NCBI GenBank assembly: GCA_000165345.1
Contig: CM000431.1
Location: forward strand, 672,001 to 736,000
Reading direction: 5' to 3'
Length of the DNA: 64,000 nucleotides
Part shown: one piece after another, positions 13,634 to 60,981 of the stretch
Position numbering within the stretch: position 1 is the stretch's first letter
Layout: each line of letters starts with the position of its first letter
Made by a program: the position numbers and the translations under genes
The notes under the pieces: model-generated
Databases searched by the model: none
What the model was told of the DNA's origin: nothing
Seen by the model: the letters and a program-made list of their open reading frames with translations, nothing else

Positions 13634-13656
13634 TTATGATAATTTATCTTTTCCCT

Positions 13657-15034
13657 CTATATCCACGTTCTTCTGAGTATTTTACTTGGTAAATAAGTAT
13701 TCACCAAATAATCACTAGAAATTGATTGGAATGCTTCTAATTCGCATTTATAATTATGTTCATACATCAGTTTGCATTGCCGACAAAGTATCTCACATTC
13801 CTATTTGTGTTAATTGTTACTTGTACTTAATGTTCGTGCTTACCTTTATTGCTGGATCTTCTATTAGTGATTTCAAGGTGGATCTATCTTTTTCGGATAG
13901 AATAACCCTTGTCTACAAAAAATTAACTTAACTTTTATAGCATTATAACTTACATCGGATGGAATGAGTTCTGTATCTTCAAAATGTATTCCCAAATAAT
14001 ATATACTTGGACAAGCTAAAATATATAAAACAAAATTATGGAGTAAAGTTTATTGTCATACCTGCCAATTGTGATTCAAAATTGCTTGAACCTCGTACGT
14101 ATGTTAGGTATATATTGATGCCATGTGGATCAAAGTCCCCTAAATATAAAGCCTATCAGAACTTATAAGAGGTAATAAAAATAAGTGAGAACTTACTGTA
14201 ATTCCAGATTTACATATAATGTCGGAGACTAATTTCCTAGTTGAAATATCTGGAAAGCCTTTACCTACTTTGAATTATTTATAATAAAAACATTTTTTTA
14301 CATACCCGTAATTACCAAACAAGGAATCCTATTATAAATCTCTCTCTCCATTAAATACTGAAATATCGAAGCCTTTTCAATAACTAATAAATATTTCACA
14401 TTTGTCTTTATTATATATTTACTGTCATTTGGATCAAATATATCTGTGATCGTTGCTCCTGACACTCCAAGTTCTTCAACGTCTAAAAAATCTGAATTCT
14501 AAGAATAATTTGAAAATATAAAAATGTGAACCCTTACTTTATAAATTAGTTTTATTCTTCCGCCAATCATTCCTTTTGGAGAAGGGAATAATCCAAATGA
14601 TATTCTTGGTATCTGCAGGATTTCTGAAAAGTCTAAATTTCAGGTTTATTAATTATCATTATTTTGTTTACTTACTTTGCACTATTCTATTTACTTGGGA
14701 TTGACTCTATAAAGGGTGATTTATTATAAATATTTGTAGTTTAGTACTTACCTTAAAAAGCCAACTATTATGATAGTATAACTCTCTTAATGTTAATTTT
14801 CTACCTCTTTTCTGTGCACTATGTAAAACGTTCGCAATTGAAGTAACTAATTAAATTGTTTAAGTAAATTATTTAAAAAACCAACTTACTCTTTGCAATA
14901 TTAATTACATCATTTTTTCTTCTTGATGAGCCAATAATATATTGATCGCATTGTAAAGATTCAATCCAATTTAGTGTATTAAAAGATGTAGATTTCCCCA
15001 AATTAAATAAAACAATATCTTCAATAAAATTCAT
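13657..15034 (-). CDS. SPO11: Spo11 / topoisomerase VI subunit A-like meiotic DSB transesterase; 10 exons, 9 short introns
   Basis: Exons on the minus strand: 14890-15034, 14752-14804, 14676-14706 (31 nt micro-exon), 14538-14632, 14306-14498, 14197-14264, 14062-14152, 13954-14015, 13844-13912, 13657-13800. The total is 951 nt (316 aa). Introns are 39-85 nt with GTAAGT, GTATGT, GTAAGG or GTAAGC donors and AG acceptors. Phase is consistent throughout. The protein carries the catalytic-Tyr motif (RKLTLRELYYHNSWLF), a 5Y-CAP/WHD segment (ISFGLFPSPKGMIGG), a Toprim region with Glu (LLVIEKASIFQYL), ITGKGFPDISTRKLV, a DxD motif (ALYLGDFDPHGINIY), then LGIHFEDTELIPSD and a C-terminal KCELEAF...YLPSKI. 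The ORF track has no call here. Confidence 0.8.
14676..14706 (-). other. 31 nt micro-exon (exon 3) of Spo11
   Basis: Encodes SQSQVNRIVQ(N). Flanked by a 45 nt intron (14707-14751) and a 43 nt intron (14633-14675). It is required to keep the frame between the RELYY exon and the SPKGMIGG exon. Confidence 0.55.
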
Positions 15035-15214
15035 TTATACTTCATTAAGCAAAAGCAACAAAATAAATAATTTACCTCCCTTCTAAATAGTTGTATATTT
15101 ATAAGTATTTCAATATAATTTTTTTCCTGGTTATTTTTTTATCTTGAAAATCTAATAATTTTTTAAATTACCGCAATAAAGAAAACATTTATTATTAAAT
15201 TGTACCACATTATA

Positions 15215-18200
15215 ATGGTAAAAATAACGAATGATGAAAATGAAAGGACGATTATATTGAATAATAAAAATGAAGAAAGCTTTATCCATTCATTCAAAAG
15301 ACTTAATGTAATAAAAACAGCAAGATATTCTCTTTTATTTTTTTTACCAAAAAATCTATATGATCAATTTAACAATGTTGCAAATATTTACTTTTTGGCA
15401 ATAGGTATTATGCAAATGGTACCTTCAATATCATCATCTGGTGGAATCCCTACAATAGCTCTTCCTTTAATATGTATGTTATGTTTTTCTGCGGCGCAAG
15501 CAGCATATGAAGATTGGAAAAGACATAAAGCAGACTCAGAAATAAACAACCTTCCTACGTATGCATATGATCCAATTAAAGGTAATTTTGCAGTCACAAA
15601 ATGGGGTGATTTGAAGAACGGAGATCTTGTAATTGTTAAAAATAGAGAAATTTTTCCTGCTGATATGGTATTACTTGCCTCTAGTCAAAATGATAATCGA
15701 GTGTTTGTCGAGACTGCCTCAATGGACGGTGAAACAAACCTAAAGCTTCGAGAAAGCCCTAGAATTCTTTTTAATAATGGAGTTAGAAATATTAGTGATA
15801 TCCTTACTATTTCAAAAGGTATAATGTATTGTGGGGAGCCAAATGATCACCCAAAAAAGATACATATAAATTCAAAATTTGTGTTGAAAAATTCTAAGGA
15901 CGATGAAAAAGAACTCAATTTTTCGTGTAATTCATCAAATATGTTATTACGTGGGTGTAAGCTAAGAAACACCTCATGGGCACTTGGCGTTGTGGCATAC
16001 ACTGCTCATGAAACGAAAATTTATCAAAGCAGTTTTAGATCAGCCCCACATAAAATGAGTAATGTACAATCTTTATATAACCAAGTAACTATTGCATCAT
16101 TCATCTTCTTGTTGTTTATTTGCCTTTCTTTTGGAATTATTGTAGCTTGCATTGATTACTTTGGAGGACCAGAATTGTCGAAAAAGTTTATTCCAATTGG
16201 GAAAATGGAGCCCAACGAAAGTGTGATTAAAACTTCAATAATTACTTTTTTTACCTGGATTATTGTTCTTGCAAATCTAATACCTATTGGAATGTTTTTT
16301 TATTTAGTAATATCCAAAGTTTCACAAGCAATAATCATTGCTTCAGATTCTAGATTAACAAGTCAAAACTCTACTGTTGTAAGGAATTCAGATTTAAATG
16401 ACGAGCTAGGTCAGGTATCTTATATTTGTACTGACAAAACAGGAACATTAACAAGGAATTACATGGAATTCAAAACTGTTTGTATTAACGGAAACGTATA
16501 TGGAGGTAACCATCACGAAATGAGGCAAGATACAGATCAATTGAGTATTGAACACACAGAAAAACAAAAAATAACTCCGCATGTTGACATGGAAGATGAA
16601 TTACTGAGAAAAAACTTAAAAGAAGGAAATAAGGAAGAGATAGAAATACTATTGAATTTTGCTCTAAACCATACAGTATTAATACAAGAAAATGAGGTTG
16701 ATTTAGATGAACCACCTCTCTATTCGGCAAGTTCAACTGATGAGGAAGCGCTTGTATTAGCTTCCCACCACTTTGGAATATCACTAGTTTCCCAAAACTG
16801 CTCAAAAAGTACAATTAAATTTTCTGGGATAGGAACTAACCAAACTTCTGTTGAGTTTGAAACATTGCTAAGATTTGAATTTGACCACGCAAGAAAAATA
16901 AGTTCAGTATTGGTAAAATTCCCAAAAAAAATCTTTAGTTACGAGTCAAATGATTCAGATGGTTATAGGTATATCCTATTTTCTAAAGGATCGGAATCTG
17001 CAATAAAAGAATGTTGTGTTAATCAAGAAAGTTTGGATATTGCTAATGAAACATTTGAATATGCAACAGAATTTGCTAGTAATGGCTATAGGACACTGTG
17101 TTTTGCAAAAAAAGAACTTAGTGAAAATGAAGTTATTGATATTTTAAATAACTTTAAACATGACAATAAAATTCATTTAGAAGAAGTTAGAACATTCTTT
17201 GAAAGCAACTTGACTCTACAGGGGTGTTCCGGAATTGAAGATATCTTACAGCACCGTGCCCAGGAAACGATTGAGTCACTGATTGCTTCAGGTATCAAAG
17301 TTTGGATGCTTACCGGCGATCGACAAGAAACTGCAATAAACATTGCAGTTAGGGTTGGAATCATTTCAGATGAAATGGAAGTTATTATTTTTGATGAAAA
17401 TAAACTTGAATCATTTTCAAATAATTTAATTAAAGAATTTCCCGATAGATCAAGTTTTTTGAATAGAGAAAATGGCTCATTCAATTTCTCAAATGTAGTA
17501 TTAGTCATTGATTCCAAAATATTGGAAAAGGCCCTAGTAATTGATGAAGCTAAATTTGCAAAAATTGCAACAAAATGTTCATCTGTAGTTTGTTCTAGAG
17601 TTACACCTCAACAAAAAGCACAAGTTGTCAAGTTAATTCAGGAATTTACAAAGCAAAGAGTATTAGCAATTGGTGATGGCGGAAATGACTGTACTATGTT
17701 ACAAACTGCAAATGTTGGTGTTGGCATCCATGGTTCAGAAGGCATGCAAGCTTATAATGTATCTGATTTTGGTATTTCCCAATTCTGTCATCTTCAACCT
17801 TTGGTTCTTATACACGGAAGGCTCTGTTACAGAAGAACATCTATTTTGGTGCTATATAACCTTTACAAATGTTTTACTCTAAATATTGTGAGTGTTTATT
17901 TTGGTTTTGCATCGCTTTTCACAGGGTCTAAATTGTTTTTTGAATTACTATTCCAGTTATATAACTTTCTATATACTTCAGTACCTCCCATAATTTTTGC
18001 AACATTTGATTCAGATATTCCAATTACATTACCATATGATTATCACGAGCCACTTTATTTATTAGGCATAACCAAGCCATTCTTTTCATTAAAAATATTT
18101 GGGATTTGGTCCATGAATGCTGTTTTCCATGCAGCGGTATCATTGTTCATTCCTTACTTTATTTTGGGAGGCAACAATCCAATATCAAATGATGGATACG

Positions 18201-18751
18201 TTCCAGATTTTTGGACTACAGGGCTAGCCGTTTATACCAATGTTGTAATTGTTGTAAATACCAAGATATTACTCGAAGCATTTACTTCATGGAGTCTTGT
18301 TTTATTTTCAATAATAATATGTGCCTTTCTATTTTTTCTATCAATTTTGTGTTTCCCCTACATTTTCCATATACCAGAATTGGAATTAGCAGCTAAAAGG
18401 GCAATCATTACCCCAATGTTCGTCATTACAATTGTTATATCAATTACAGTTACTATTTCACTAGATTGGATATTAAAAATATATAAAAGAAGCTTATACC
18501 CTGAAATATCTCACTTGTTGCAGAATAAGTGGTATAAAATATACAAAAAAAAATATGAATCTCACAGGCAACTTCTTCTGAAACACTTATCACTTAATTG
18601 GCTCGAGTCCATGAGAAGATTAAAAAGAAAGAAATCGGCAGAAGTTGAACAAATTCAAATAAGGAAAAAATCATCTGATATAATTGGATATGCATTCAAC
18701 TATCCAGATGTTAACGTGAGTCAGCTGTTTCTATCAAATAAAACAATATAA
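15215..18751 (+). CDS. phospholipid-transporting P4-type ATPase (aminophospholipid flippase)
   Basis: 1178 aa from the first ATG at 15215; the track start at 15200 is a TTG. Phosphorylation motif ICTDKTGTLTRN and hinge GDGGNDCTMLQTANVGVGI. The TM segments and N-terminal flippase-type motifs (LLFFLPKNLYDQF) are as expected for a P4-ATPase. Confidence 0.9.
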   Translation: MVKITNDENERTIILNNKNEESFIHSFKRLNVIKTARYSLLFFLPKNLYDQFNNVANIYFLAIGIMQMVPSISSSGGIPTIALPLICMLCFSAAQAAYEDWKRHKADSEINNLPTYAYDPIKGNFAVTKWGDLKNGDLVIVKNREIFPADMVLLASSQNDNRVFVETASMDGETNLKLRESPRILFNNGVRNISDILTISKGIMYCGEPNDHPKKIHINSKFVLKNSKDDEKELNFSCNSSNMLLRGCKLRNTSWALGVVAYTAHETKIYQSSFRSAPHKMSNVQSLYNQVTIASFIFLLFICLSFGIIVACIDYFGGPELSKKFIPIGKMEPNESVIKTSIITFFTWIIVLANLIPIGMFFYLVISKVSQAIIIASDSRLTSQNSTVVRNSDLNDELGQVSYICTDKTGTLTRNYMEFKTVCINGNVYGGNHHEMRQDTDQLSIEHTEKQKITPHVDMEDELLRKNLKEGNKEEIEILLNFALNHTVLIQENEVDLDEPPLYSASSTDEEALVLASHHFGISLVSQNCSKSTIKFSGIGTNQTSVEFETLLRFEFDHARKISSVLVKFPKKIFSYESNDSDGYRYILFSKGSESAIKECCVNQESLDIANETFEYATEFASNGYRTLCFAKKELSENEVIDILNNFKHDNKIHLEEVRTFFESNLTLQGCSGIEDILQHRAQETIESLIASGIKVWMLTGDRQETAINIAVRVGIISDEMEVIIFDENKLESFSNNLIKEFPDRSSFLNRENGSFNFSNVVLVIDSKILEKALVIDEAKFAKIATKCSSVVCSRVTPQQKAQVVKLIQEFTKQRVLAIGDGGNDCTMLQTANVGVGIHGSEGMQAYNVSDFGISQFCHLQPLVLIHGRLCYRRTSILVLYNLYKCFTLNIVSVYFGFASLFTGSKLFFELLFQLYNFLYTSVPPIIFATFDSDIPITLPYDYHEPLYLLGITKPFFSLKIFGIWSMNAVFHAAVSLFIPYFILGGNNPISNDGYVPDFWTTGLAVYTNVVIVVNTKILLEAFTSWSLVLFSIIICAFLFFLSILCFPYIFHIPELELAAKRAIITPMFVITIVISITVTISLDWILKIYKRSLYPEISHLLQNKWYKIYKKKYESHRQLLLKHLSLNWLESMRRLKRKKSAEVEQIQIRKKSSDIIGYAFNYPDVNVSQLFLSNKTI

Positions 18752-18776
18752 ATTTATTTGTTATTGAAATTTTTAA

Positions 18777-20405
18777 TTAATCAAACGAATGAGTGTTACC
18801 TCTTGAATAAGTATTCCCCAATAGATATTCTTTATCAAATTCATTCTTAATAAACTTAGATTTATCAATCACTTTTCTTTCTTGCTTGAAATAATCATTC
18901 GTTGCCTTACCTTCTAAGTAGTTCTTTAAAATGCTTTCACCTCCTAAACCCCAAACTTCAATATCTGCGACGCTGAATTTATTGATTTCTGTTGTTGATT
19001 CATCGCTCTCTCCAGAATATGGAGTACCTAATAATAAACAACTATTTCTTTTACCAGAATTATTACTAGGTTGATAAAGCATTCCAATATTGTACGTAAG
19101 ATCGCTTTTCAAACAAGTTCCAGTGCCTAGTGTAGAGTCCAGCCATAATCTGGAGTACTCTGGCTCTCCCCCAAACCCTATTCCTTTCGGAGAAAAATCA
19201 TATCTTGTATTAATATACATAAAATTTCTACCTTTGCCAGACTGTCCAATTATAGAAAACATTGGTCTAAGAGATGTTAAAAAACACGTTTCATCTCCAC
19301 AATATTTTCCGTTGCCTTCTTTCCAATCTCCAGTGCAAACTGAACCAAATATACAATTGTCAGTGGTCTTAATCAATAATAAAACATTAGATGAATATCC
19401 TTCTATTAGTGATACTAGCCTATTCAAGCTTAATCCATGTTTCCAACTAGCATATAGCAAATTCCATGGTTGAAAAAGTGTTAAACATTCTCCGCTTGAC
19501 GCATCACCAAAATACTGGCATCGTAAAATGCAGCAGTGTTCAGTTGAGAGCACACGGCTATTATCGTCAATCCAGCGGCTTAACTTAAAGAGGTCTAGCG
19601 AAGAAATGCATCCACCATTTTGGGAATCATTGTGACAATCTTTTTGCCTATTGCAATTGTTATCATTATTTTTGTTGTATTCATCTTGAATTAAGTTTAT
19701 ACCTTCCATAAAAGAGTTTTGAACATTGTTCGGATGTGAAATCATGTCGAAATGAACTCGAATTGATAGTTTCATAAAAAAAGCAAAAAGAGGGAGGTAT
19801 TCCTGAATAAAATCTGAAATTAAACCAACGGATGATTGTTTTGAGCAATTAATCATCTTTTTTTTGTAATACTCTTTAACAATAAATTCAAAGTCCAAGT
19901 ATGATGTAAGAGAGATCAAATGTTGATCAATATTGTTTGGTTTCAAAGATAAAATAGAAGATTTTGAATCACATAGAAGGAAACTTATCTCAAAATAAAC
20001 AATAGAAAATATTACTCTAAGCGCATCCAATTCATCTGATATATTTGATGTTACATATTCAGAAACTTTGTTGATTATTCCTTTCTTGTTACAATACAAA
20101 ATAGAATCCACGCATTTAACAAAATCAGTTAAATTTACTTTTCCAAAATCATCTTCGCAGCAAAAAGAAAAAAAACCCAGATAAAATCTTCTAAGAATTG
20201 CAGGAAACCGATTCTCTATTAAATTTAGATCTATTCTAAAGTCTTTTTTTATACTTTCGAAATTCAAGTCATTAATTCCAAATAAATTACCTATTTTTTT
20301 CAGCTCTGCCTGATCCAGATTACACCAGGAATAGTTATTACACACACCACCACTTTTACTGTTTTCAAGTAATTTATTTTCTTCAGTACTTTTAATATTG
20401 CCCAT
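18777..20405 (-). CDS. TLDc-domain protein (OXR1/NCOA7-like) with N-terminal myristoylation consensus
   Basis: 542 aa. N-terminus is MGNIKS (MGxxxS). A C-terminal TLDc domain (LLYASWKHGLSLNRLVSLIEGYSSNVLLLIKTTDNCIFGSVCTGDWKEG...GIGFGGEPEYSRLWLDSTLGTGTC...). ATG verified. Confidence 0.75.
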   Translation of the reverse strand: MGNIKSTEENKLLENSKSGGVCNNYSWCNLDQAELKKIGNLFGINDLNFESIKKDFRIDLNLIENRFPAILRRFYLGFFSFCCEDDFGKVNLTDFVKCVDSILYCNKKGIINKVSEYVTSNISDELDALRVIFSIVYFEISFLLCDSKSSILSLKPNNIDQHLISLTSYLDFEFIVKEYYKKKMINCSKQSSVGLISDFIQEYLPLFAFFMKLSIRVHFDMISHPNNVQNSFMEGINLIQDEYNKNNDNNCNRQKDCHNDSQNGGCISSLDLFKLSRWIDDNSRVLSTEHCCILRCQYFGDASSGECLTLFQPWNLLYASWKHGLSLNRLVSLIEGYSSNVLLLIKTTDNCIFGSVCTGDWKEGNGKYCGDETCFLTSLRPMFSIIGQSGKGRNFMYINTRYDFSPKGIGFGGEPEYSRLWLDSTLGTGTCLKSDLTYNIGMLYQPSNNSGKRNSCLLLGTPYSGESDESTTEINKFSVADIEVWGLGGESILKNYLEGKATNDYFKQERKVIDKSKFIKNEFDKEYLLGNTYSRGNTHSFD

Positions 20406-20451
20406 AATAAGCGATATTAGGTGGGTTTTGCAGTTCTAGTTAATTTTCAAC

Positions 20452-21979: not shown

Positions 21980-23488
21980 ATGGATTATACTCAAAGAAAT
22001 TTAGAAAAGACGGTTTTAGATAATCACCATATTTGTTTAAATTTAAAGCGAAAAAATAAATTAACTTCGGAAAACAAAGACCATATTTATTATGAATTAC
22101 TTGAAAATAAATATATTAACCCATATTTAGATCAGATTGATTATAGTAAAATTTTTAAACGATTTTTTTCTCAGAAAGATGCGATCGAATATTATGATTC
22201 CATAAACTCTCATTTTGGCCAAATAGAAAACTCAGACGATTCTAGAATATTACCCATTGGAGTTTTCGCTGAAGAAACTACCATAAATGGGAGCAGAAAT
22301 TATATTGTTAGTTCTTATGAATCAATCTGGAACTATATTTCTTCACTATGTAAGTATGAAAGACATGTTTATGAAGTAATACTTGCTAACCAGCCTTGTT
22401 GGCTTTACTTCGATATTGAATATAATAAAAGCCAATATAATTTAGATGATAACCGAATATTGATTGATTTTACAAGTCATCTTAAATTGTGGATTAAATT
22501 GCTATTTGGATACTCAATTGACAAAAAAGATATCATTTACCTCTGTTCAAGTAACGCTGATAAGTTTTCATATCATATCATAATAAAAAGGATCGATATG
22601 GTTCAAAATTTTTCGACATTATTCAAAGATAATATATCGATGAAAATTTTTGTAACCCATTTTATTTCTTTTTTGAATAAAAATAATGTTTTACTTGATG
22701 AATTTGATCACTTTAATCTTCAGAATATAATTGACACAGGAGTCTACACTCGAAATCGGTGTTTTAGAATGCTTTATTCTTCAAAGTTCGGAAAGAAGAG
22801 CATCTTACAAATTGACGAGATGAATACTAGTTTTGTGCTTACAGAGATTTTGCCAATAAAACTATTTCGGTCAATGATTACATTTTTAAATACTCGCACT
22901 TTTTCAAAATCAAACTTTATTTCTAGAATAAATGTAATTAACCAGCTTTGCTTCAACTTAGAGAAGTTCTGTCTTCCAAAAATTTGTGGAATAAACGAAA
23001 TTTCATTTAATGAATACAAAAGTAATGAAAATACAAAATTCATTCCTAGGCATTTAGTAAAGCTAACAGAATACGTAATTTTATTCTGGAACAAGTTATC
23101 TGAAGAGCTTCAAAATAACCCTGAATTGATGCTTAGTAATCTTGAAGAAAGTAAATTAATAGATTACTGTTTGAAAAAAATTAATTTTGATTTTGATGAT
23201 AAAATTTCAATTAGAATTCAAATGTTTATAAGTACCACAATGTATTTTAAAGAAAAAGAATTAATCATTATTTCAGTTTCAAAACTCAATAAGTTATGTT
23301 TCAATATTGAAAGAGAGCATATTTCAAATGGAATAAAATTAATTATTGACTTCTACAATAAGCGGTTTTATCAAAAATGTTTTGATCCTGACTGTATAAA
23401 TTTTAAATCAAGATCATTTACGGTTCCAGAAAGTTTAATTAATTATTCATATGATATACTTGAACTATCTGAGATGATTAAATTTTAA
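21980..23488 (+). CDS. PRIMPOL: primase-polymerase PrimPol (archaeo-eukaryotic primase superfamily with UL52-type zinc finger)
   Basis: The first ATG is at 21980; the track start at 21974 is a TTG. AEP motif I is YEVILANQPCWLYFDIEYNK (human YEVIPENAVCKLYFDLEFNK). Motif III is DTGVYTRNRCFRMLYSSKFGK (human DLGVYTRNRNFRLYKSSKIGK). The C-terminal Zn-finger region is KRFYQKCFDPDCINFKSRSF (human WYQKCHDPVCKAKNFKS). Confidence 0.85.
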   Translation: MDYTQRNLEKTVLDNHHICLNLKRKNKLTSENKDHIYYELLENKYINPYLDQIDYSKIFKRFFSQKDAIEYYDSINSHFGQIENSDDSRILPIGVFAEETTINGSRNYIVSSYESIWNYISSLCKYERHVYEVILANQPCWLYFDIEYNKSQYNLDDNRILIDFTSHLKLWIKLLFGYSIDKKDIIYLCSSNADKFSYHIIIKRIDMVQNFSTLFKDNISMKIFVTHFISFLNKNNVLLDEFDHFNLQNIIDTGVYTRNRCFRMLYSSKFGKKSILQIDEMNTSFVLTEILPIKLFRSMITFLNTRTFSKSNFISRINVINQLCFNLEKFCLPKICGINEISFNEYKSNENTKFIPRHLVKLTEYVILFWNKLSEELQNNPELMLSNLEESKLIDYCLKKINFDFDDKISIRIQMFISTTMYFKEKELIIISVSKLNKLCFNIEREHISNGIKLIIDFYNKRFYQKCFDPDCINFKSRSFTVPESLINYSYDILELSEMIKF

Positions 23489-23521
23489 TTTTTGTATTTA
23501 AATATTGTAATAATCAATAAA

Positions 23522-26452
23522 ATGGAGTTTTCAACTGAAGATTCCTCTCTCATTTGTGAAAATTGCAGAGGAGACCGAGTATATATTGATACAAATACTG
23601 GTGAATATTTTTGTGAGGATTGTGGGATCCAGCAACAGGAAATTAGAGAACTAGAAAGAGATATTGACGATGTGTACTTTGAAATATCAAACGGGCCAGA
23701 TGGTAGAAGAAGCAATGTTAGGCGTGCGAGCCAGTCAACTGAAAAGCTATCAAATAAAGAAAATAATATTGAAAGCTTAAAAGATGATGATACATTATAT
23801 GACCAGACCCTGAACAATATTTCTAACAAGAAGCAAACATATTTTGATAAATGGTTCAATAAAAAACCAAAAATAGTTAAAAATTCTGACTTCTTAATTG
23901 GAGTACAGCTAATTGTTCAAAACATTATTAAAGATATGATCGAAAGACGTCAAATAAAAAACGATGTTCTAAAAACTTCAAAAAGTATTTGGTTTTCATT
24001 TTTGGAATATTTATGCAAAAACAGAATTTCAATTAGAGCATTTTTTGCAGATCTAAGATGTTCTGTACTCAAGGTACCATTTAATGAAACAGCTTCTAAT
24101 TCAAATATAAATAATATTCAGACTAAAAATCTCAAAATTCCCAATATTGAAAGAAAAGTTTATGAAAATGAAAATACTATATTATATGATTTGCTACATA
24201 ATTTATTTGGATTAGATAGGGTTGAATACTTATCAAAAATTTGCGATGGAATAATCAGATACTGTAATTCAACTAATGCACGTAAAAGAATGAGCAACAA
24301 TGCTAGAACAGATGAAAGTTCTGGTGGAAATGTGTTGGAGGAATGGGAAATCTCTGCAAGAAAACTTCAACAATTAGCAAATGTAAGAAATATTCCATAT
24401 TCAAATTGGTATGGAGAATCAAATATTCCTAGGTCAGAATTAATTAAATCTGTTATTGACATGATTTATGAGTATGACTTTCTAGAAAGTTATTTCAGTA
24501 GAATAAGCAAAAGCATATCTGATGAAAATGGACATATTAATCAGTCTAGATTTAATGAATGGATCAACTTCCATGTCATTTTTTTAATGAACAACAGAAA
24601 AATAAATCAAGATTATATTTCAATTTCAAACTATTTAGAATTACCTACAAATGAGTTTCAGAATCGTAGAGACTTAGAGTTTCAGCTCTACAAAGTACGT
24701 ATTATACATTTACTGTTATATAAAATATTGGGTAAATGCTTAATTAGAGTATTTCATAATTCATCGCTCTCTGATTATTCTCCAATATTTGAGTTTATTG
24801 GAAACATTGAATCCCAAAATCTTAGAAAAAGAAGTTTGCCTAAAGATTGTTTTAAAAATTTATCTTTGGAATGCCCAAAAATAGACTATAGTTTTATATT
24901 GTGTATTATTTGGATTTCATTGTTGAAGAGTGGTTATCAAGTTACATCTTTTGACATTATTGAATGGGTAAAAGTTGGAAAAATAGATATATTTAAATCT
25001 GAAAACGCAATTCCAAAATGGCTTAAAGATGCAGGCTTCAAATGGGATAACGATATTAATTCTATTACTCAAACTAGATCAATTACGCAAGTTTCGAAAA
25101 TTCCAAGTCCTGCAGATCTTGAAAGAGTGATCAATTTTTTTTCAATGTCAATTAATTTGGTTATTCCGCCTTTTAATGTTCCAATCATGATTCACAGAAT
25201 TTTGTCAAACTGTAATTTGTTTGGAAATAGAGGAGGAATTTCAATACAGCCTCTTTGTATCCGTCTTTGGGAATTTTTATTCAAAGAAGGCAATATTATC
25301 AAATTTTTTAGTAAACTGACAATTGTACCATCCATCATAATTGTTATTGCAAGATCAATTTGGCCAATTTTCGTATATCATCCTATACCTAATCCAAAAT
25401 ATATATTAGAAAACTTACATTTCCATAATGAATTATCAAAATCTAATGTATCTGCTACTATAGAATCGCTTAATCTTGACTTTGGGTTTGATGTAAAACT
25501 ATCATCTTGGATCTTAAAAACTAGAGAAAATCAATCTTTGTTGGAAGAAAAAATCCGTTTCTATTCAATCCTCAATGGCATTGAATGGAGTGGGATTTTT
25601 GCAATTAATTGGCTTTATAATTACCTATCAAATATGTCTGCGCCATCCATAAATGTAAATGATATATTTAGAAACTCCGATACAAAGAGTCCAGAATTTA
25701 TTATTGAAAAAAAAGGAAGGCCAACAATAAATTTAAGAGGTGATTTCTTTAACTCTATAAGAAAAAAAAGGCAAGGTATAAAAAAAAAGATTGGGAAAAG
25801 CAATTGGTCAGGAATTACGCCTTCAGAACCAAAAAATTGTGAATTCTATTCGTTTGACAAAAAAAAAATTAGTATATTTTCTAGATACTTACCTTCTAAT
25901 AGAGAAATATTCCACTCTATGTTGTTTAAATATGTGAACAAGGTGAATATATTTTTTGATCATGATATTTTACAATCATGGGATTTATTTGATGACGACG
26001 AAAAGGTTCAACTTGTTAGTAATTGGGGAAAAATCTTATTAACGAGTAAAGAAACTGAGAACTCTAGCATTCTTAAGGGTATCATTGAATACAACTTTCC
26101 TTCGGTTGTATGTTCGTTATTCCCAGTATTAATAAACAATAATTTCTTGAAGAACGAAGGTAGCTGTTTCAACAGCATTGAATCTATTATCAATCATATC
26201 TTCAATTTGAAACTTGATTTCTTAAAAAAATTATTCCAAGAACCCGGGATTTTTACTTTTATTGTTCCGCCTTTGCCTCAGTTTATTCACTCCAGACAAA
26301 TGCACACTAATTCTGAGGCATCTTTACCAACGCCTTATTCTATTTTGTTGTTGCAATTAGCTAAAATAACTGGAGAAAACTATTTAAATATTCACAATTG
26401 TGCTATTAAAATTGAAGAAATATTACGAGAAAGGCTTGTAAAAGGAAGGTAA
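23522..26452 (+). CDS. protein with N-terminal TFIIB-type zinc ribbon (candidate Rrn7/TAF1B- or Brf-like initiation factor); otherwise unassigned
   Basis: 976 aa from the ATG at 23522; the track start at 23492 is a TTG. It starts only 33 nt after the PrimPol stop. The N-terminus has CENCRGDRVYIDTNTGEYFCEDCG (a C-x2-C...C-x2-C ribbon). The rest is not recognisable. Confidence 0.5.
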   Translation: MEFSTEDSSLICENCRGDRVYIDTNTGEYFCEDCGIQQQEIRELERDIDDVYFEISNGPDGRRSNVRRASQSTEKLSNKENNIESLKDDDTLYDQTLNNISNKKQTYFDKWFNKKPKIVKNSDFLIGVQLIVQNIIKDMIERRQIKNDVLKTSKSIWFSFLEYLCKNRISIRAFFADLRCSVLKVPFNETASNSNINNIQTKNLKIPNIERKVYENENTILYDLLHNLFGLDRVEYLSKICDGIIRYCNSTNARKRMSNNARTDESSGGNVLEEWEISARKLQQLANVRNIPYSNWYGESNIPRSELIKSVIDMIYEYDFLESYFSRISKSISDENGHINQSRFNEWINFHVIFLMNNRKINQDYISISNYLELPTNEFQNRRDLEFQLYKVRIIHLLLYKILGKCLIRVFHNSSLSDYSPIFEFIGNIESQNLRKRSLPKDCFKNLSLECPKIDYSFILCIIWISLLKSGYQVTSFDIIEWVKVGKIDIFKSENAIPKWLKDAGFKWDNDINSITQTRSITQVSKIPSPADLERVINFFSMSINLVIPPFNVPIMIHRILSNCNLFGNRGGISIQPLCIRLWEFLFKEGNIIKFFSKLTIVPSIIIVIARSIWPIFVYHPIPNPKYILENLHFHNELSKSNVSATIESLNLDFGFDVKLSSWILKTRENQSLLEEKIRFYSILNGIEWSGIFAINWLYNYLSNMSAPSINVNDIFRNSDTKSPEFIIEKKGRPTINLRGDFFNSIRKKRQGIKKKIGKSNWSGITPSEPKNCEFYSFDKKKISIFSRYLPSNREIFHSMLFKYVNKVNIFFDHDILQSWDLFDDDEKVQLVSNWGKILLTSKETENSSILKGIIEYNFPSVVCSLFPVLINNNFLKNEGSCFNSIESIINHIFNLKLDFLKKLFQEPGIFTFIVPPLPQFIHSRQMHTNSEASLPTPYSILLLQLAKITGENYLNIHNCAIKIEEILRERLVKGR

Positions 26453-26462
26453 TTTCTGGATT

Positions 26463-32466: not shown

Positions 32467-32479
32467 ATAAAGATAACAA

Positions 32480-33070
32480 TTAACAAATATTTTCAGTGAG
32501 CTGTGACTTTCTTGCAAGTCTTCGTTCTTTTTTTCTCACAAATTTCATCTTTTTTGCAATAATTTGCTCTTCAGACAAGTTAGAGCTTTTTCGCCTCTTA
32601 TTTTTTCTATTTGATTGTTTGTTGGGAGTCAAGCCAGAGCTTAATGCATTTTTAGGGTTAATCTCATCTATAATTTTATCTCCATCTGTCAAATTATGAA
32701 GAATATTGAATTTTTCTCTTATTTTCCTTGCATCTTCCTGTTTTTTTTGCCATTTTTCTACCATATTTAGATGTTGTTTAGATTTGATATGCTTATCAAG
32801 ATCAGACTCATTAATAATTATTTTTTTGGGACAGAGAATGCATTTAAATTTCCCAATAAAGTCATATTCAACGGAATCAATGCTTTCAGTTTTTATATCT
32901 TCATTTTTCAATAGAGAATCTGAATGTTCTTCAACGTTCTTTGGGGATTCATCTGAAAAGTCATCTCCATAAACTTTATTTATTTGTTTTTCAATATTTT
33001 CACGTAAATATTTACAATTTAATGAGTTTGAAAGCAAATCTGACGAAAATAATGCAACTCTCTTATACAT
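32480..33070 (-). CDS. U1-type/C2H2 zinc-finger protein (ZNF593/Bud20- or Rei1-like), basic C-terminal tail
   Basis: 196 aa. FKCILCPKKIIINESDLDKHIKSKQH is a matrin/U1-type C2H2 finger. Lys/Arg-rich C-terminus. ATG verified. Confidence 0.5.
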   Translation of the reverse strand: MYKRVALFSSDLLSNSLNCKYLRENIEKQINKVYGDDFSDESPKNVEEHSDSLLKNEDIKTESIDSVEYDFIGKFKCILCPKKIIINESDLDKHIKSKQHLNMVEKWQKKQEDARKIREKFNILHNLTDGDKIIDEINPKNALSSGLTPNKQSNRKNKRRKSSNLSEEQIIAKKMKFVRKKERRLARKSQLTENIC

Positions 33071-36436: not shown

Positions 36437-36437
36437 G

Positions 36438-38252: not shown

Positions 38253-38305
38253 CGTTGAATCAAATATAATTGCTTTATTATTATTTATAAACGCTTTATT
38301 ATTAT

Positions 38306-53142: not shown

Positions 53143-55041
53143 ATGCAGCAGATTCCTACCATACTAAAGAATTCAAAGTCTTGGTCAAATTCAACACAGA
53201 GATCTGAATATAACAAACATTCTAATAATTGGGTAGATTTTAATCTCAATGTTGAAAAACTGAATAATTGTTCGAATTCGAATTTTATTTACAAGTTTTT
53301 AAATACAGATCTTTCTAGGAACTATCATGGAAATTTGAATCATGCTGGATCAGAAAGATATCGGACAAAAAACGAAGGGGTAATTCAAAATTCATTGATA
53401 AAAGAAAATAAAGTTTCAAGACAAAAATTAGTCAATTCAAGGCCAGTTGAAATTGAATGCAAAACTTTACTTCCTAATTTATTTTCTGTGAATGGGCAAA
53501 AACATATTCCTTTTGACATTAATTTAAATCGATTTGATACTTTTGAAACTGAGAGTAAAAATTCTCATAAAAGCAAACCACAAATAATTAATAGGAAATT
53601 AGGAAACGATTTGAATTATTATAACACAAAAATTATTAACTCAAATCATTGCCCGAAGCTTGTACCAATAGCTTGTAATAATCTATTTCGTGCAACTTCT
53701 TTTTTAGAAGTCAAGCCAAATTTCAATAATTGCAACAATAACTCAAGTTTTTTGAGAAAAAATTCAAGTTTCATATCAGAGAATTATAGAAACAACGGTA
53801 TAAAATCGAATGTCAATGTGTCTTGTATTCAAGAAAAAAATTACAGTTCAAGTAATCTAACTAATAGTCAACAAAAAATTATTTATTCAGCAAATCAAGA
53901 AAATTCTTCGATATTGTTGAATAGCAAATCAAAAAATCTAAAAATGCCAAATTATTTCAGTTCTAAACTCTTTATAAGAAATCTTCCAAAAGTTTCAATT
54001 AATAATTTAAGTTCAAAGCCAATTTACCAAATAGATGGTCTTGAATCCAGTGATAATGGAATGGAAGTAAACTTGACGAGTATAAAGATGTTTTCAATAC
54101 TTGGATTTGGGTCAACCAGTTTAGTTTATTCAGCAGTTTGGAGAGGGACTGAAGTTGCCGTAAAAATATTGGGTAACTATGCAAAAAGTATTAAATCATC
54201 CGATTGTAATCACTTAAATCTAAGTATTAATAAAGCAATTAAACACATGGAAATTACCAAAAAGGATTGCCAACGTTACTTAGAATTTAGAAATGAGATT
54301 AGAATCATGAATCTGTTACGTCATCCAAATATTGTACAGTATATGGGAGGCAATATTAGTTCAAATCCGCCATTTTTGATATGTGAATTTTGCTCTGGAG
54401 GCACTCTTTTTAACTTATTACATGGAGACTCAAAAAAATGTTTAGGATCGAACAGTTTTTCTTTTTCTGGACCATCTGTTAACTTATCTTTGTACCAAAG
54501 AATAAAAATTCTGCAGGATATTGCTCGAGGGATTCATTTTTTGCACTCAGCAAATCCACCAATAATTCACAGGGATATTAAGTCACTAAATATTTTCTTA
54601 TCATTGCCAATTAAATCTAATGCTGACGTCCCAATTGCTAAAGTTGGAGATTTTGGCCTCTGTCAGCAATTATTCTCAGACAAAGGTTTTATAAATGGAT
54701 CTGGAAATTTGGTTGGTACATACCAATGGATGGCACCTGAGGTGTTAACAAGCCAAATCTACAACGAACATATAGATGTATATAGCTTTGGAATGATCAT
54801 GTATGAAGTTCTCTCAAACAGGACACCTTTTTTCGAATTAGGAGTTGATGTAAACCCAGAAATATTGGCTGATGAAATCATCAAAGGTATTAGACCTACA
54901 TTAAAGTATATAGTTAACGATGTACCTATCGAAATAAAAAACATAATGATTCGATGCTGGGACCCGCAACCTTCCAAGAGAGGGACGATGCTTGTAATAA
55001 TTAATGAATTACAGCATTTTATGGAAAAAATAGGGAATTAA
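53143..55041 (+). CDS. protein kinase, TKL/tyrosine-kinase-like catalytic domain with Asn-rich N-terminal extension
   Basis: 632 aa. Gly loop LGFGSTSLVYSAVWRGTEVAVK. Catalytic loop HRDIKSLNIFL. DFG motif VGDFGLC. APE motif YQWMAPEVL. The first 300 aa are low-complexity. Confidence 0.85.
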   Translation: MQQIPTILKNSKSWSNSTQRSEYNKHSNNWVDFNLNVEKLNNCSNSNFIYKFLNTDLSRNYHGNLNHAGSERYRTKNEGVIQNSLIKENKVSRQKLVNSRPVEIECKTLLPNLFSVNGQKHIPFDINLNRFDTFETESKNSHKSKPQIINRKLGNDLNYYNTKIINSNHCPKLVPIACNNLFRATSFLEVKPNFNNCNNNSSFLRKNSSFISENYRNNGIKSNVNVSCIQEKNYSSSNLTNSQQKIIYSANQENSSILLNSKSKNLKMPNYFSSKLFIRNLPKVSINNLSSKPIYQIDGLESSDNGMEVNLTSIKMFSILGFGSTSLVYSAVWRGTEVAVKILGNYAKSIKSSDCNHLNLSINKAIKHMEITKKDCQRYLEFRNEIRIMNLLRHPNIVQYMGGNISSNPPFLICEFCSGGTLFNLLHGDSKKCLGSNSFSFSGPSVNLSLYQRIKILQDIARGIHFLHSANPPIIHRDIKSLNIFLSLPIKSNADVPIAKVGDFGLCQQLFSDKGFINGSGNLVGTYQWMAPEVLTSQIYNEHIDVYSFGMIMYEVLSNRTPFFELGVDVNPEILADEIIKGIRPTLKYIVNDVPIEIKNIMIRCWDPQPSKRGTMLVIINELQHFMEKIGN

Positions 55042-55090
55042 CTACGAGGAAAACTAATAAACTCGAGTTAACATTGGTTGGTTTAAAGAG

Positions 55091-55759
55091 TTAAAATGAA
55101 ACTATTTTTTCTAATTTCCTACTTAGATTAAGAATTGCTTGTTTATTCGTAGAAATGACATTTTCATTCAAACATTTAGATTTTAGAATAACTAGTATAT
55201 GGTCATTGGAATTATAATTAAAATTTATATCTTTGAATTCGGTTTGAACAAAAATCACCACCTCATCTGCTTTGAGAGGGTTAAAAGTACACAAATAACA
55301 GCTGATATAAAGCGTGTTGTAAAGCGTAGGGGGTGTTGAATTTAAAGAACCAATATTCAAATGCTGCATAATCTCCAATATTGATTTAGATGAAAAACAT
55401 TCAACCACTTTATTGACCTGTATAGTCGCTTTTTTATCTTTATCGCTTGTTAAAGCCATTTCCAAACTATTAGTTGTGGGTTCAATAATTGGTGTTTGGT
55501 ACGAAATGTTGACTAAGTCTTTGCTTTCTGTAGGATAAATATACTGTAATATACGAGCTTCTGCTTCAGTGTGTTTTTGCGCCTTTGTAAAGTCTAATTT
55601 TCTAGAAAAACAATGCGACTCCATAACATTAGGACACCATGTGTTCTCACGCCACTTAACAAGCTTAACTTCTACGCATAAGGATTTCAACAGGTCAAGA
55701 AGGTCCTCAAGTTGATTAATATTGACTCTACCTACTTTACTACATTCGATATAACTCAT
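55091..55759 (-). CDS. hypothetical protein (222 aa)
   Basis: The first ATG is at 55757-55759; the track start at 55777 is a TTG. No family recognised. Confidence 0.45.
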   Translation of the reverse strand: MSYIECSKVGRVNINQLEDLLDLLKSLCVEVKLVKWRENTWCPNVMESHCFSRKLDFTKAQKHTEAEARILQYIYPTESKDLVNISYQTPIIEPTTNSLEMALTSDKDKKATIQVNKVVECFSSKSILEIMQHLNIGSLNSTPPTLYNTLYISCYLCTFNPLKADEVVIFVQTEFKDINFNYNSNDHILVILKSKCLNENVISTNKQAILNLSRKLEKIVSF

Positions 55760-55869: not shown

Positions 55870-56916
55870 ATGAATTTTGGAAGGACAATTTATTTTTCGA
55901 TCAGTTCATTCTTCAGAGAAATGACACAAAAGTTTCTCAGCGCTGAAGAAGAAATTTTTATGCTAAAAAATAAATTTGCACCAGAAGAAAAAAAATACTT
56001 CTTAAAAGAATTTCACGATATTATACTATTCACATACAGGAATGAATTTAAAAATATTATCATAACTAGAAATACAGTACAACTAACAAAAAATTATTCA
56101 AAAAATATAAACTCTGATGTCGGGTGGGGATGCATGTATAGAGTGACCCAAATGTCGATTGCTCACGGTATATGCCAATTTATGAAGAGGTTTCTGGGCA
56201 ATTTAAATATCGAAAAAATTTTGAATAACTTTCAAGATAATGAAAGTGCAAAATTTTCAATTCATAATATGGTAAATATTGGTCTGAGTGAATTCGGAAT
56301 TGATCCTACATCTTGGATTGGACCAACAACATCATCAATGATCGCAAATAAGCTAATAAATGATAATAGAAGCATTATATCTAATATTCAGATTGCGAGT
56401 ATTACCTACGTAGAAGGCACTATTTATAGGGATCAAGCGGTTAAACACTTTTCAGAAGTGGGTTCAGATAGCTGTACTTTTGTATGGCTTTGCATGAAGT
56501 TGGGTACGTCCAAATTCAATATTAACTCATATAAGAAAACAGTAATTTCAATGAGTAATGTCTCACAGTTCATATGTATTATGGGAGGTAATAATTATTC
56601 GTCAGGGGCTTTATTAATTGTTGCATTTAGCAATTCCTTTTTGTATTGCTTAGATCCGCATATTAAAGTACTTCCATCATTTTCCGATAAAAACTTTATT
56701 AGGGATGACTTTATTCAAAAAGTTCCGACAAGGATTTATTGGGGGGAACTGAATTCATCTTTATCCATGGTTTATATTTGCCGAAACCTTGAAGATTTTG
56801 ATGATTTGTGCAGCAATTTAACTAGAATTAATTCTGATTTATTTGAAGTTATAAATAATTGTGATTTTGAAGTAAAGAGTATAAATGAATTAGATTCTGG
56901 TTTTTTAGTAGTATAA
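55870..56916 (+). CDS. ATG4: autophagy cysteine protease ATG4 (peptidase C54)
   Basis: 348 aa. FTYRNEF, the catalytic Cys motif SDVGWGCMYRVTQM and the downstream DPH (CLDPHIKV) of the catalytic triad. Confidence 0.8.
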   Translation: MNFGRTIYFSISSFFREMTQKFLSAEEEIFMLKNKFAPEEKKYFLKEFHDIILFTYRNEFKNIIITRNTVQLTKNYSKNINSDVGWGCMYRVTQMSIAHGICQFMKRFLGNLNIEKILNNFQDNESAKFSIHNMVNIGLSEFGIDPTSWIGPTTSSMIANKLINDNRSIISNIQIASITYVEGTIYRDQAVKHFSEVGSDSCTFVWLCMKLGTSKFNINSYKKTVISMSNVSQFICIMGGNNYSSGALLIVAFSNSFLYCLDPHIKVLPSFSDKNFIRDDFIQKVPTRIYWGELNSSLSMVYICRNLEDFDDLCSNLTRINSDLFEVINNCDFEVKSINELDSGFLVV

Positions 56917-56934
56917 TACCTTAAATTGCCAGCT

Positions 56935-58209
56935 TTAAAAAATGGGGATTGAACCTATTATTTCCAGATTAGTTATCAAATAGGGGTATTCCAGACCAGG
57001 AACATTGGCATTTGGATGAGGAGTTACTTTGATTGAATATTGTAACTCTTTGATATCGTCTATGGAACCGGAAATTATTCTTCCATTAGAGTCTTGCAAG
57101 CAATTAATTTGTTGCGTTTTAAATGTAAACATAAATTCCGGTTGATTTGTTTGTATTTTACAATCCTTAAAAGAAAACATTAAATCTGAGATTTCTGCTC
57201 CTATCAGCTCTACATTTCCTAATTGAAGAATTTTTGTATTTAAGCAAAGCCCCATCTTTTTAAGTTTTTCAATGTTTGAGCAAAGTTGTCTATATGCTAC
57301 ATCCCCACAATGCAATCTCAGCTTGTGCTCGTCGCATTTAAGATATGATTCCATGAATTTTGGGAGAATGTATTCTTCAAAAAATGACATAAAGTCAGTT
57401 AATTTAAAATTTGGATTGATTGCCTTCATTTCTTTAACGACTTTAGATATTTTATTTCCATTATATATAGTTTTAAAATATTCACTTTCAAATATATTTT
57501 TCAATAATAACATATCCTTAAGTTTTACGCCGAGCCTGTTCCGTAAAGAATAATTGTGTAGCACAACAGAATTTTCTACTATTGGAACTATAGTTTTGCC
57601 TTCAATATTCTTATTTATAATTTTCTTATTGCTAGTTTTAATTTCACTGTTACTTTCTTTATTACAATCTGACTTCCAACTCGAAAGCTCTCTTTCTATC
57701 ACATTCCTATTGGTTTCATCATAGAATAAAACTTTTATTATTTCTATGTGCCTTGAAAAAAGGTTACTTGAAAGGAATCGAGAGAAAATTGAAGAAATTT
57801 TAGCTGTAAAAAATTTAATATGGGATAAAAATCTATTAATTTTATACAATTCTGCAATATTTATGAAATAAACCGAAGAATAGAAATTTATAAATGGTAA
57901 ATTACTGTAAAACTTGAAATATAAATTATCAAATTTTTTCTTCAAAAGTGCAATATCATCCTGTAGTATTTTGTCACTCTTAATTTCATTTTTTAATTGT
58001 GAAACAAATTTATTAAAATATGAATTAAATGTTGAATAACATCTTCGTTTTCTAAAATTTAAATTATTAAGTTGAGTGAAATGCATATAATATTTGTTGC
58101 TCTGATAAAACAAGAAAATATTTCTGCATATAGAAATATCCTGTCGAAGGTTGTATCTCAAGCTATTTATGCAAACTTTTGTTAAGGCATTGCTACTAAG
58201 CCCTTCCAT
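56935..58209 (-). CDS. hypothetical protein (424 aa)
   Basis: ATG verified. Its stop is 18 nt from the ATG4 stop. No family recognised. The antisense ORF 57272-57553 is spurious. Confidence 0.5.
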   Translation of the reverse strand: MEGLSSNALTKVCINSLRYNLRQDISICRNIFLFYQSNKYYMHFTQLNNLNFRKRRCYSTFNSYFNKFVSQLKNEIKSDKILQDDIALLKKKFDNLYFKFYSNLPFINFYSSVYFINIAELYKINRFLSHIKFFTAKISSIFSRFLSSNLFSRHIEIIKVLFYDETNRNVIERELSSWKSDCNKESNSEIKTSNKKIINKNIEGKTIVPIVENSVVLHNYSLRNRLGVKLKDMLLLKNIFESEYFKTIYNGNKISKVVKEMKAINPNFKLTDFMSFFEEYILPKFMESYLKCDEHKLRLHCGDVAYRQLCSNIEKLKKMGLCLNTKILQLGNVELIGAEISDLMFSFKDCKIQTNQPEFMFTFKTQQINCLQDSNGRIISGSIDDIKELQYSIKVTPHPNANVPGLEYPYLITNLEIIGSIPIF

Positions 58210-58394
58210 TAATAAATATTAATGTCTAAAATATATGAAGTATTACAAATAAATCTAAGAACATTAATTTTTTTGGATTGATTTCATTGAAATATAATAA
58301 GATAAATTTCAACCTGAGCATTAATTTAAAAACTAAATAAATATACCGCTGTGTATAATGAGCTTGTAAAGAAATACCTTATTTTTTTTTTTTA

Positions 58395-59792: not shown

Positions 59793-59820
59793 CAATATTT
59801 TACAAACTTCAACTGTTATA

Positions 59821-59844
59821 TTTTTGCGCGCATAAAATTGCGCC
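59821..59844. promoter_or_regulatory. GC boxes TTTTTGCGCGC and ATTGCGCC (E2F-like) 55-78 nt upstream of the KRR1 ATG
   Basis: tttttgcgcgcataaaattgcgccatttggg, in AT-rich spacer. Confidence 0.3.
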
Positions 59845-59898
59845 ATTTGGGAGGTCATATTTTACATTACCAATAATTTTAGGTTTAGTATTAATTGA

Positions 59899-60975
59899 AT
59901 GTTAGAGATGAGTGTAGGTACTCCAATGGAAAATCAAGAGATTATTTCTAAAAAAAGAAGGTATAGAAAGGATAAGCCGTGGGATACCGATGATATTGAT
60001 CACTGGAACGTTCCTAAATTAACACCTGAAGATAATCCTCATGGACTTTTAGAAGAAAGTAGTTTTGCAGTGCTATTTCCAAAATATCGTGAAAAATATT
60101 TACGTGATATTTGGCCAGATATACGTAATGCCCTGAAAGCCCATCATATTAAATGCGAGCTTGATTTAGTAGAAGGATCTATTACTGTAAGAACGACAGG
60201 CAAGACTTGGGACCCGTTTATTATTATACGCGCTAGAGATATGGTAAAGCTCTTATCAAGAAGCGTACCATTTCACCAAGCAGTTCGAATTCTAGGTGAG
60301 GGGGAGGATGATAACAATCTTGGCTGTGACATAATAAAAATCGGGCATAGGAATAAGGAGAAGATGGTTAAAAGACGTCAGAGACTAGTAGGCCCAAATG
60401 GATCTACATTAAAAGCTATTGAATTGCTAACAAATTGCTACGTGTTAGTTCAAGGTCAAACAGTTAGTGTAATTGGGTCATATAAAAGCTTAAAGCTCGT
60501 GCGCCGAATAGTAGAAGATTGTATGAATAATATACACCCAGTCTACCATATCAAAGAACTCATGATAAAGAGAGAATTAGAAAAAGATGAAAGATTAAGA
60601 GGAGAAAATTGGGATCGGTTTTTACCAAAATTTAAAAACAAATGTGTAAAGAGGAAGGTGAAGAAACAAATTAAAAAGAAAAACAAGTCAATATTCCCAC
60701 CTGAGCCTACTCCTAGAAAAGAAGATATGTTACTCGAAACTGGTGAGTACTTTTATAGTGAATTGGAAAGAAAAGCTAAACAAATTAAAGAAAGAATATC
60801 TGAGCAAAAAGAGAAAAAAAATGAAAAACATATGGAAAGAGAAAAGATGTATATTCCTCCGAATGAAAAATTGTTTTTAAAAAATAAAACAAGTAACCAA
60901 AACGAAATTAATTATAAAACTTTTGGGCAGAATTCCGAGAAATACAAGAATAATTTATCAAATTTTGTTGTTTAG
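59899..60975 (+). CDS. KRR1: KRR1 small-subunit processome component (KH domain)
   Basis: 358 aa. Near-collinear with KRR1 ([16 protein letters not shown]...[12 protein letters not shown]...[45 protein letters not shown]...). Confidence 0.9.
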
Positions 60976-60981
60976 ATTGGA

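Follow-up and report, generated by a model that had tools for sequence, protein, structure and literature searches.

The stretch of DNA analysed here, which we call the window, comprises 64,000 nucleotides (nt) of the Cryptosporidium parvum genome (NCBI GenBank assembly GCA_000165345.1, contig CM000431.1, positions 672,001 to 736,000 of the forward strand), and our subject is its convergent gene pairs, i.e. neighbours on opposite strands whose stop codons face each other across a short spacer. The corresponding segment of C. parvum IOWA-ATCC (CP044420.1:675,045-739,044; according to the literature, this strain is assembly GCA_015245375.1) shows 0 mismatches over 35,887 compared bases. The G+C content is about 30%, long open reading frames (ORFs) crowd both strands, and public gene models place 34 genes in the window, 94% of which is genic; neither tRNA genes nor Rfam matches were found in it. 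Passages of published genome descriptions give ~77% coding sequence genome-wide (PMC8744675) and an intergenic distance of 504 bp (PMC7840661), against a mean of ~111 nt in the window.

Seven convergent pairs have nearly abutting stops. The gene for a CENP-C-like protein (+, 11009-13633) faces the multi-intron gene for Spo11 (-, 13657-15034) across a spacer of 23 nt (13634..13656), and a P4-ATPase gene (+, 15215-18751) is separated by 25 nt (18752..18776) from a gene encoding a TLDc domain (-, 18777-20405). Further along, a Zn-ribbon/Rrn7-like gene (+, 23522-26452) and a gene for a TH1-domain protein of 1096 amino acids (aa; -, 26463-29753) leave 10 nt between them (26453..26462), while Cullin (+, 29911-32466) and a C2H2/JAZ zinc-finger gene (-, 32480-33070) leave 13 nt (32467..32479). 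The shortest spacer, a single nucleotide (36437..36437), lies between POP1 (+, 33965-36436) and a gene for a 294-aa protein (-, 36438-37322). The two remaining pairs are ATG4 (+, 55870-56916) with a gene for a 424-aa Tim44 protein (-, 56935-58209), at 18 nt (56917..56934), and KRR1 (+, 59899-60975) with a gene for a 2691-aa KNTC1-like protein (-, 60982 to beyond 64000), at 6 nt (60976..60981). These distances, read directly at the junctions and from the ORFs, are exactly those reported by the first-pass annotation, whose gene names were likewise upheld by Pfam, with identities added for two partners that had been left unnamed. In three C. parvum assemblies, gene calls that are public and independent of our reading place the ends of the paired genes at the same positions, with the exception of one Spo11 call, which is discussed below.

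Rather than forming a class of their own, the seven pairs are the short end of a property common to every convergent junction in the window. According to the public gene models, the convergent gaps (n = 12) range from 1 to 75 nt with a median of 24 nt, as compared with 65-276 nt (median 157 nt, n = 11) for divergent and 33-255 nt (median 194 nt, n = 10) for tandem gaps; over these 33 junctions the difference between convergent and all other gaps is highly significant (Mann-Whitney p = 4.6e-6). Gaps of 25 nt or less occur at 7 of the 12 convergent junctions and at none of the 21 divergent or tandem ones (Fisher p = 1.9e-4), so that the short convergent spacing is strongly non-random. In addition, neighbouring genes lie on opposite strands in 23 of 33 cases (two-sided binomial p = 0.035).

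The initial list of pairs was incomplete rather than wrong. Within its range lie two more convergent junctions: a protein kinase gene (+, 53143-55041) and a gene for a 222-aa protein (-, 55091-55759) are 49 nt apart (55042..55090), and genes for proteins of 217 aa (+, 37599-38252) and 97 aa (-, 38306-38599) are 53 nt apart (38253..38305). Three others lie upstream, namely SPC22 (+, 7508-8029) with a DnaJ/thioredoxin gene (-, 8105-10000) at 75 nt (8030..8104), a 203-aa gene (+, 6204-6815) with a gene for a ubiquitin-conjugating enzyme (UQ_con; -, 6876-7442) at 60 nt (6816..6875), and a 436-aa gene (+, ending at 644) with a 1787-aa gene (-, 674-6037) at 29 nt (645..673). Some divergent pairs are also tightly packed: only 65 nt separate the start codons of UQ_con and SPC22 (7443-7507) and of DnaJ and TRAPP (10001-10065), which leaves almost no space for two promoters and two 5' untranslated regions (UTRs).

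Loci in other Cryptosporidium species were located via orthologues of POP1, TLDc and Tim44 and their stops were placed by homology; in this way 2-8 orthologous junctions per species were compared in four other intestinal species (chipmunk genotype I, C. felis, C. bovis and C. canis), in addition to the gastric C. muris. Gene order and orientation are kept throughout the compared loci, and the same short gaps are found at the orthologous junctions of the four intestinal species. In chipmunk genotype I the gap is identical to that of C. parvum for CENP-C-like/Spo11 (23 nt), Zn-ribbon/TH1 (10 nt), Cullin/C2H2 (13 nt), ATG4/Tim44 (18 nt), KRR1/KNTC1-like (6 nt) and kinase/222-aa (49 nt), and differs for P4-ATPase/TLDc (26 nt, as compared with 25 nt), POP1/294-aa (2 nt, as compared with 1 nt) and 217-aa/97-aa (29 nt, as compared with 53 nt). 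C. felis has 32 nt at Zn-ribbon/TH1, 18 nt at Cullin/C2H2 and 1 nt at POP1/294-aa; the values for C. bovis at the same three junctions are 17, 20 and -4 nt. C. canis has 16 nt at ATG4/Tim44, where the stops in both C. canis and chipmunk genotype I were extended by homology, 6 nt at KRR1/KNTC1-like and 11 nt at kinase/222-aa. The negative value in C. bovis reflects a genuine overlap of two genes: in a palindromic TTAA the stop of POP1 interlocks with that of its partner, and these 4 nt (L017 12499-12502) belong to both coding sequences. The public C. bovis POP1 model ends at 12426, but homology to C. parvum continues to the residues HFKIY, which are followed by the stop.

C. muris retains the same pairs at larger distances, with 90 nt at Zn-ribbon/TH1 (L020 1118-1209), 254 nt at P4-ATPase/TLDc (11605-11860) and 101 nt at CENP-C-like/Spo11 (17557-17659). 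On the strength of these sequence comparisons, in which the contrast with C. muris comprises three junctions only, we suggest that near-abutment, which the intestinal species share, arose in the intestinal lineage.

All these measurements presuppose that the stops are correctly placed. For all 14 gene ends of the seven pairs, alignment of the C-terminal 46-100 residues with chipmunk genotype I continues through the final residue, after which a stop follows at once, and for the most part this is also true of C. felis, C. bovis, C. canis and C. muris. When C. parvum is compared with chipmunk genotype I, amino-acid identity is 0.80 in the last 10 codons, equal to the gene body (0.82). The gene that called for most care is Spo11, which is interrupted by some nine tiny introns, although the rest of the region is poor in introns. 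Its exon model was assembled by hand from the three-frame translation; the product is 326 aa long, with both Pfam domains complete, and the Toprim profile is matched over positions 1-170 of 170, its end falling in the terminal exon that ends at 13657. The orthologues in chipmunk genotype I and C. muris are 330-331 aa long. On the other hand, the public C. parvum calls conflict with each other (271 aa versus 201 + 56 aa), and the shorter one stops at window position 13714, inside the same open frame and without a stop codon; these models probably miss exons. The public Tim44 models of chipmunk genotype I (403 aa, L019 10001-11278) and C. canis (354 aa, L021 10001-11251) are likewise shorter than the homology-extended ORFs, and because they end early, the annotated Tim44-ATG4 gaps of 41 and 156 nt overestimate the true 18 and 16 nt. 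Given the alignment of C-termini, the stops of the seven pairs are real.

Where the messenger RNAs (mRNAs) of such genes end can be approached through their polyadenylation (poly(A)) hexamers. In eukaryotic 3'-end processing generally, cleavage occurs 10-30 nt past the hexamer, and we adopted this spacing, a general value rather than one measured in Cryptosporidium, together with the published Cryptosporidium motif A(A/G)TAAA. Only two of the 14 ends, those of P4-ATPase and Spo11, have a hexamer placed such that cleavage could fall within the spacer; in the former an AATAAA is located 14 nt upstream of where the stop codon ends (-14), and in the latter the hexamer is at -29. At six ends cleavage directed by the first usable hexamer would fall 2-200 nt into the partner gene, and at the remaining six no A[AG]TAAA occurs within 200 nt, so that among the eight ends with any hexamer, six predict cleavage past the spacer. 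The hexamers of TLDc, at +19, and of Cullin, where TGA and the following ATAAA make AATAAA over the stop, a feature kept in chipmunk genotype I, illustrate how close to the stop these signals can lie. At the POP1 junction the signal comes from the neighbour: the terminal codons of POP1, ATT TAT TAA, read on the opposite strand as AATAAA at +4 after the stop of the 294-aa gene, and this hexamer is kept in chipmunk genotype I and C. bovis. In the window the motif occurs at 3.10 per kb in coding sense, 3.13 per kb in coding antisense and 5.7 per kb in intergenic sequence; the two coding strands are thus at parity, and an AT-rich neighbour easily provides poly(A) signals on its antisense strand. 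In C. muris each of the three spacers contains A[AG]TAAA on both strands, and the predicted 3' ends still cross within the spacer.

Since two 3' UTRs do not fit into gaps of 1, 6 and 10 nt, an overlap of 3' ends is a reasonable expectation, and from the hexamer positions, together with the published UTR overlap in C. parvum cited below, we consider it very likely that the mRNAs of convergent partners overlap. The first-pass annotation had gone further and called the overlap of 3' UTRs obligatory. The overlap itself agrees with the tiny gaps, with the finding that hexamers fit the spacer at just two of 14 ends and with published UTR overlap; the word obligatory, however, is too strong, considering the possibility of Giardia-type cleavage at stops and the hexamers of P4-ATPase and Spo11. 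At spacers of 18-25 nt overlap is not strictly forced. Across 75 gene ends from five species, A[AG]TAAA is 2.4-fold enriched between -20 and +39 relative to the stop (p = 2e-4), which means that overlaps may be short, perhaps only tens of nucleotides. As to direct evidence from other sources, we found no figure for the 3' UTR length of C. parvum in the literature, and the names KRR1, POP1, Spo11, cullin, Tim44 and PRP8 were not found in the supplement of the study on long non-coding RNAs (lncRNAs).

The same enrichment admits a different interpretation, that of unusually tight termination, in which poly(A) signals would reside in the last codons or over the stop, cleavage would take place a few nucleotides from the stop, and there would be little or no overlap. 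The convergent ends of C. parvum carry seven hexamers in the bin from 0 to +19, i.e. 14.6 per kb against a background of ~3 per kb, the hexamer overlaps the stop at three of the 34 gene ends in the window (Cullin, a 411-aa gene and an LRR gene), and the hexamers of P4-ATPase and Spo11 do permit cleavage within the spacer. A precedent exists in Giardia and other diplomonads, whose compact genomes also have hexamers enriched at or over stops in a minority of genes, with dual stop/poly(A) signals and a median UTR of 11 nt (PMC9014877). However, gaps of 1, 6 and 10 nt are too small even for two UTRs of ~10 nt, the POP1 pair of C. bovis overlaps by 4 nt, and 12 of the 14 ends have no suitably placed hexamer. 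Moreover, the Giardia signal AGURAA is depleted from ORFs (PMC9014877), whereas the hexamer in the window is equally frequent on both coding strands, without depletion on the sense strand, and published RNA sequencing (RNA-seq) and Iso-Seq work reports extensive UTR overlap. We therefore regard tight termination as an unlikely explanation of the pattern as a whole.

A more elaborate scenario, to which we assign an equally small probability, combines several of these observations. Convergent spacers would have shrunk in the intestinal lineage from the roughly 100-250 nt seen in C. muris to at most 25 nt, and at one pair in C. bovis to an overlap of 4 nt; one gene's 3' coding sequence would then serve at the same time as the region in which its partner is terminated and polyadenylated, as the last codons of POP1 exemplify. 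Such dual coding could be under selection, and it could give rise to a mutual interference, independent of RNA interference (RNAi), between partners that differ in their stage of expression, e.g. Spo11 and the CENP-C-like gene.

If the shared 3' regions were used in regulation, they might be expected to bear traces of it, and the first-pass annotation had indeed proposed that sense-antisense overlap could couple the expression of the pairs. Codons were compared between C. parvum and chipmunk genotype I in 27 genes (13,157 synonymous codon sites). Over the last 10 codons, convergent and tandem genes alike have a synonymous identity of 0.82 (125 and 66 synonymous sites, respectively), as compared with 0.76 in gene bodies; no extra constraint at convergent over tandem 3' ends was thus found in these 27 genes, and synonymous identity does not rise farther upstream than the last 10 codons. 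The slight rise at the very end, which is of marginal significance and independent of the orientation of the downstream neighbour, could reflect the context of termination or polyadenylation. The convergent spacers are 67% identical to those of chipmunk genotype I, compared with 70.5% at 4-fold sites and 77% in divergent and tandem spacers; by this comparison they appear to evolve about neutrally, and conserved sequence elements within them, which we considered, were rejected on the same grounds.

A hairpin or bidirectional terminator at the junctions was likewise considered and rejected. Among 101-nt segments centred on ten junctions the folding z-scores lie between -0.69 and +2.14, i.e. near zero, except for the kinase/222-aa junction, and the window contains no Rfam families. 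At that junction (55016-55116) an inverted repeat, GGAAAAAAUAG ... CUAUUUUUUCU, yields a minimum free energy of -18.1 kcal/mol (z = -2.66); both of its arms fall within the ends of the coding sequences and persist in chipmunk genotype I, but the repeat may be due to chance.

Functional sense-antisense coupling would mean that the overlap is kept by selection and that polymerase collision or RNA duplexes make the partners mutually exclusive or co-regulated, with Spo11 and the CENP-C-like gene as an example. Arrangement and spacing are kept across the intestinal Cryptosporidium species, and Spo11 is expressed preferentially in females (PMC6877471). Passages of a study on antisense RNAs in C. parvum report more negative correlations with downstream mRNAs (PMC7840661), and in Theileria, according to the relevant part of PMC4761415, overlapping pairs on opposite strands show higher conservation of synteny. 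At our loci, however, every type of neighbour is equally syntenic, the synonymous constraint is not specific to convergent ends, and the spacers evolve about neutrally. The genes for Dicer and Argonaute are reported to be absent from Cryptosporidium, and no microRNAs were detected by small-RNA sequencing of C. parvum (PMC9465071), which makes a small-RNA route unlikely. Finally, C. muris has the same pairs at 90-254 nt, hence the pairing does not depend on near-abutment. Coupling of expression by overlap is therefore unsupported by sequence evolution, by structure at the junctions or by the known RNA machinery, and we consider a regulatory role of this kind very unlikely.

The least credible alternative is an artefact of annotation, in which missed terminal introns, named at the outset as something that could displace a terminal exon, would have led to mis-called stops and the true gaps would be larger; the many small introns and conflicting public calls of Spo11 and the public models of C. 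bovis POP1 and of Tim44 in chipmunk genotype I and C. canis, which stop short of homology, might be held in its favour, but with C-terminal homology in five species, undiminished identity in the last 10 codons and the Toprim profile running into the terminal exon of Spo11, whose shorter call terminates within an open frame, it is effectively refuted.

The arrangement has counterparts in other compact genomes. Overlapping gene expression was reportedly described by Williams et al. in 2005 for the compacted eukaryotic genomes of microsporidia and nucleomorphs, as cited in PMC6009652. As in our window, spacers there are very short, mRNAs run into opposite neighbours, and antisense signal is raised without dedicated regulation; these are, however, other lineages, and the overlaps often cover whole neighbouring genes. 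The convergent genes of yeasts provide a second point of reference, with transcriptional interference in Saccharomyces cerevisiae and termination linked to RNAi and cohesin in Schizosaccharomyces pombe. They also share a 3' region in which collision or duplex formation is possible, but yeast spacers are typically hundreds of bp long, and termination of the S. pombe type depends on RNAi, a machinery reported to be missing from Cryptosporidium (PMC9465071). Polymerase collision is cited in the study on C. parvum antisense RNAs (PMC7840661).

For Theileria and fungi, PMC4761415 contains a rule for intergenic lengths, 5'5' > 5'3' > 3'3', in which tail-to-tail spacers form the shortest class, as they do here, since no promoter is needed. 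The 3'3' values for Theileria in that source, 126-203 bp (of a measure unspecified in the passage), exceed the median of 24 nt in the window, and unlike what the rule predicts, our divergent spacers (157 nt) are not longer than the tandem ones (194 nt). More generally, overlapping transcription of oppositely oriented neighbours is presented in a passage of PMC6009652 as an accepted expectation for reduced genomes. The closest parallel is provided by C. parvum itself, in work on the same organism and the same assembly that includes the annotation of IOWA-ATCC, the telomere-to-telomere annotation of CpBGF and studies on lncRNAs and polycistronic transcripts. Parts of these reports attribute frequent UTR overlap on both strands to the compactness of the genome (PMC12179316, PMC7840661, PMC8744675, bioRxiv 10.1101/2025.01.17.633476) and describe overlapping reads that fuse neighbouring genes (PMC7840661, PMC8744675), but these passages contain no orientation-resolved spacing and no account of individual pairs. 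Our spacing medians, cross-species distances and constraint test are local measurements from one 64-kb window.

One tandem junction next to a convergent pair deserves separate mention. The Rrn7/TFIIB-like ORF of 976 aa (23522-26452), the partner of the TH1-domain gene, is preceded by a PrimPol-like ORF of 502 aa (21980-23488) in the same reading frame, and the junction between them (23486-23524) consists of one TAA and 11 sense codons (33 nt); an AATAAA directly adjoins the downstream ATG. The layout is the same in chipmunk genotype I, while C. muris has more stops and a gap of 83 nt; a C. felis record is annotated as a 1452-aa product with both PrimPol-like and Rrn7-like domains. The arrangement could reflect stop-codon readthrough or a bicistronic transcript such as have been reported for C. 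parvum, or it could be due to chance.

Taken together, we think it likely that the near-abutting stops represent the ordinary tail-to-tail architecture of a compacted C. parvum genome, in which overlap is a tolerated by-product and not a regulatory device. No promoter is needed between convergent genes, so that deletion would have removed nearly all DNA between their stops. The signals for cleavage and polyadenylation would be elements like A(A/G)UAAA, which are short, degenerate and rich in A/U; at most ends they would come from the spacer, from the last codons of the gene itself or from the neighbour's AT-rich 3' coding region read in antisense. The tails of the resulting mRNAs would then overlap over a length of tens, perhaps a few hundred, nucleotides, and this overlap would be tolerated as a by-product of compaction, without regulatory use.

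Several points weigh against this interpretation. The overlap of the 3' ends of these genes is inferred, not observed; the six of 14 ends that lack A[AG]TAAA within 200 nt make the hexamer model a weak predictor in C. parvum; and the enrichment of hexamers around stops leaves room for very short UTRs with minimal overlap. In addition, the constraint test has low power at the numbers of synonymous sites given above, and as all types of neighbours are syntenic at these loci, the conservation of the pairs cannot tell an overlap that is tolerated from one that is used.

The overlap of convergent genes as a result of genome compaction has been described before in C. parvum, and our analysis opens no new question; it adds a small local measure of that compaction and a hint that near-abutment is specific to the intestinal species. 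Its implications are nonetheless practical. Values of expression from short reads, as well as calls of antisense RNAs and lncRNAs in C. parvum, must allow for the end of one gene also being the 3' UTR of its neighbour, and the design of knock-ins and knock-outs at 3' ends must likewise allow for the shared 3' region, because the partner gene too will be disturbed wherever a C-terminus or 3' UTR at one of these junctions is tagged or replaced.

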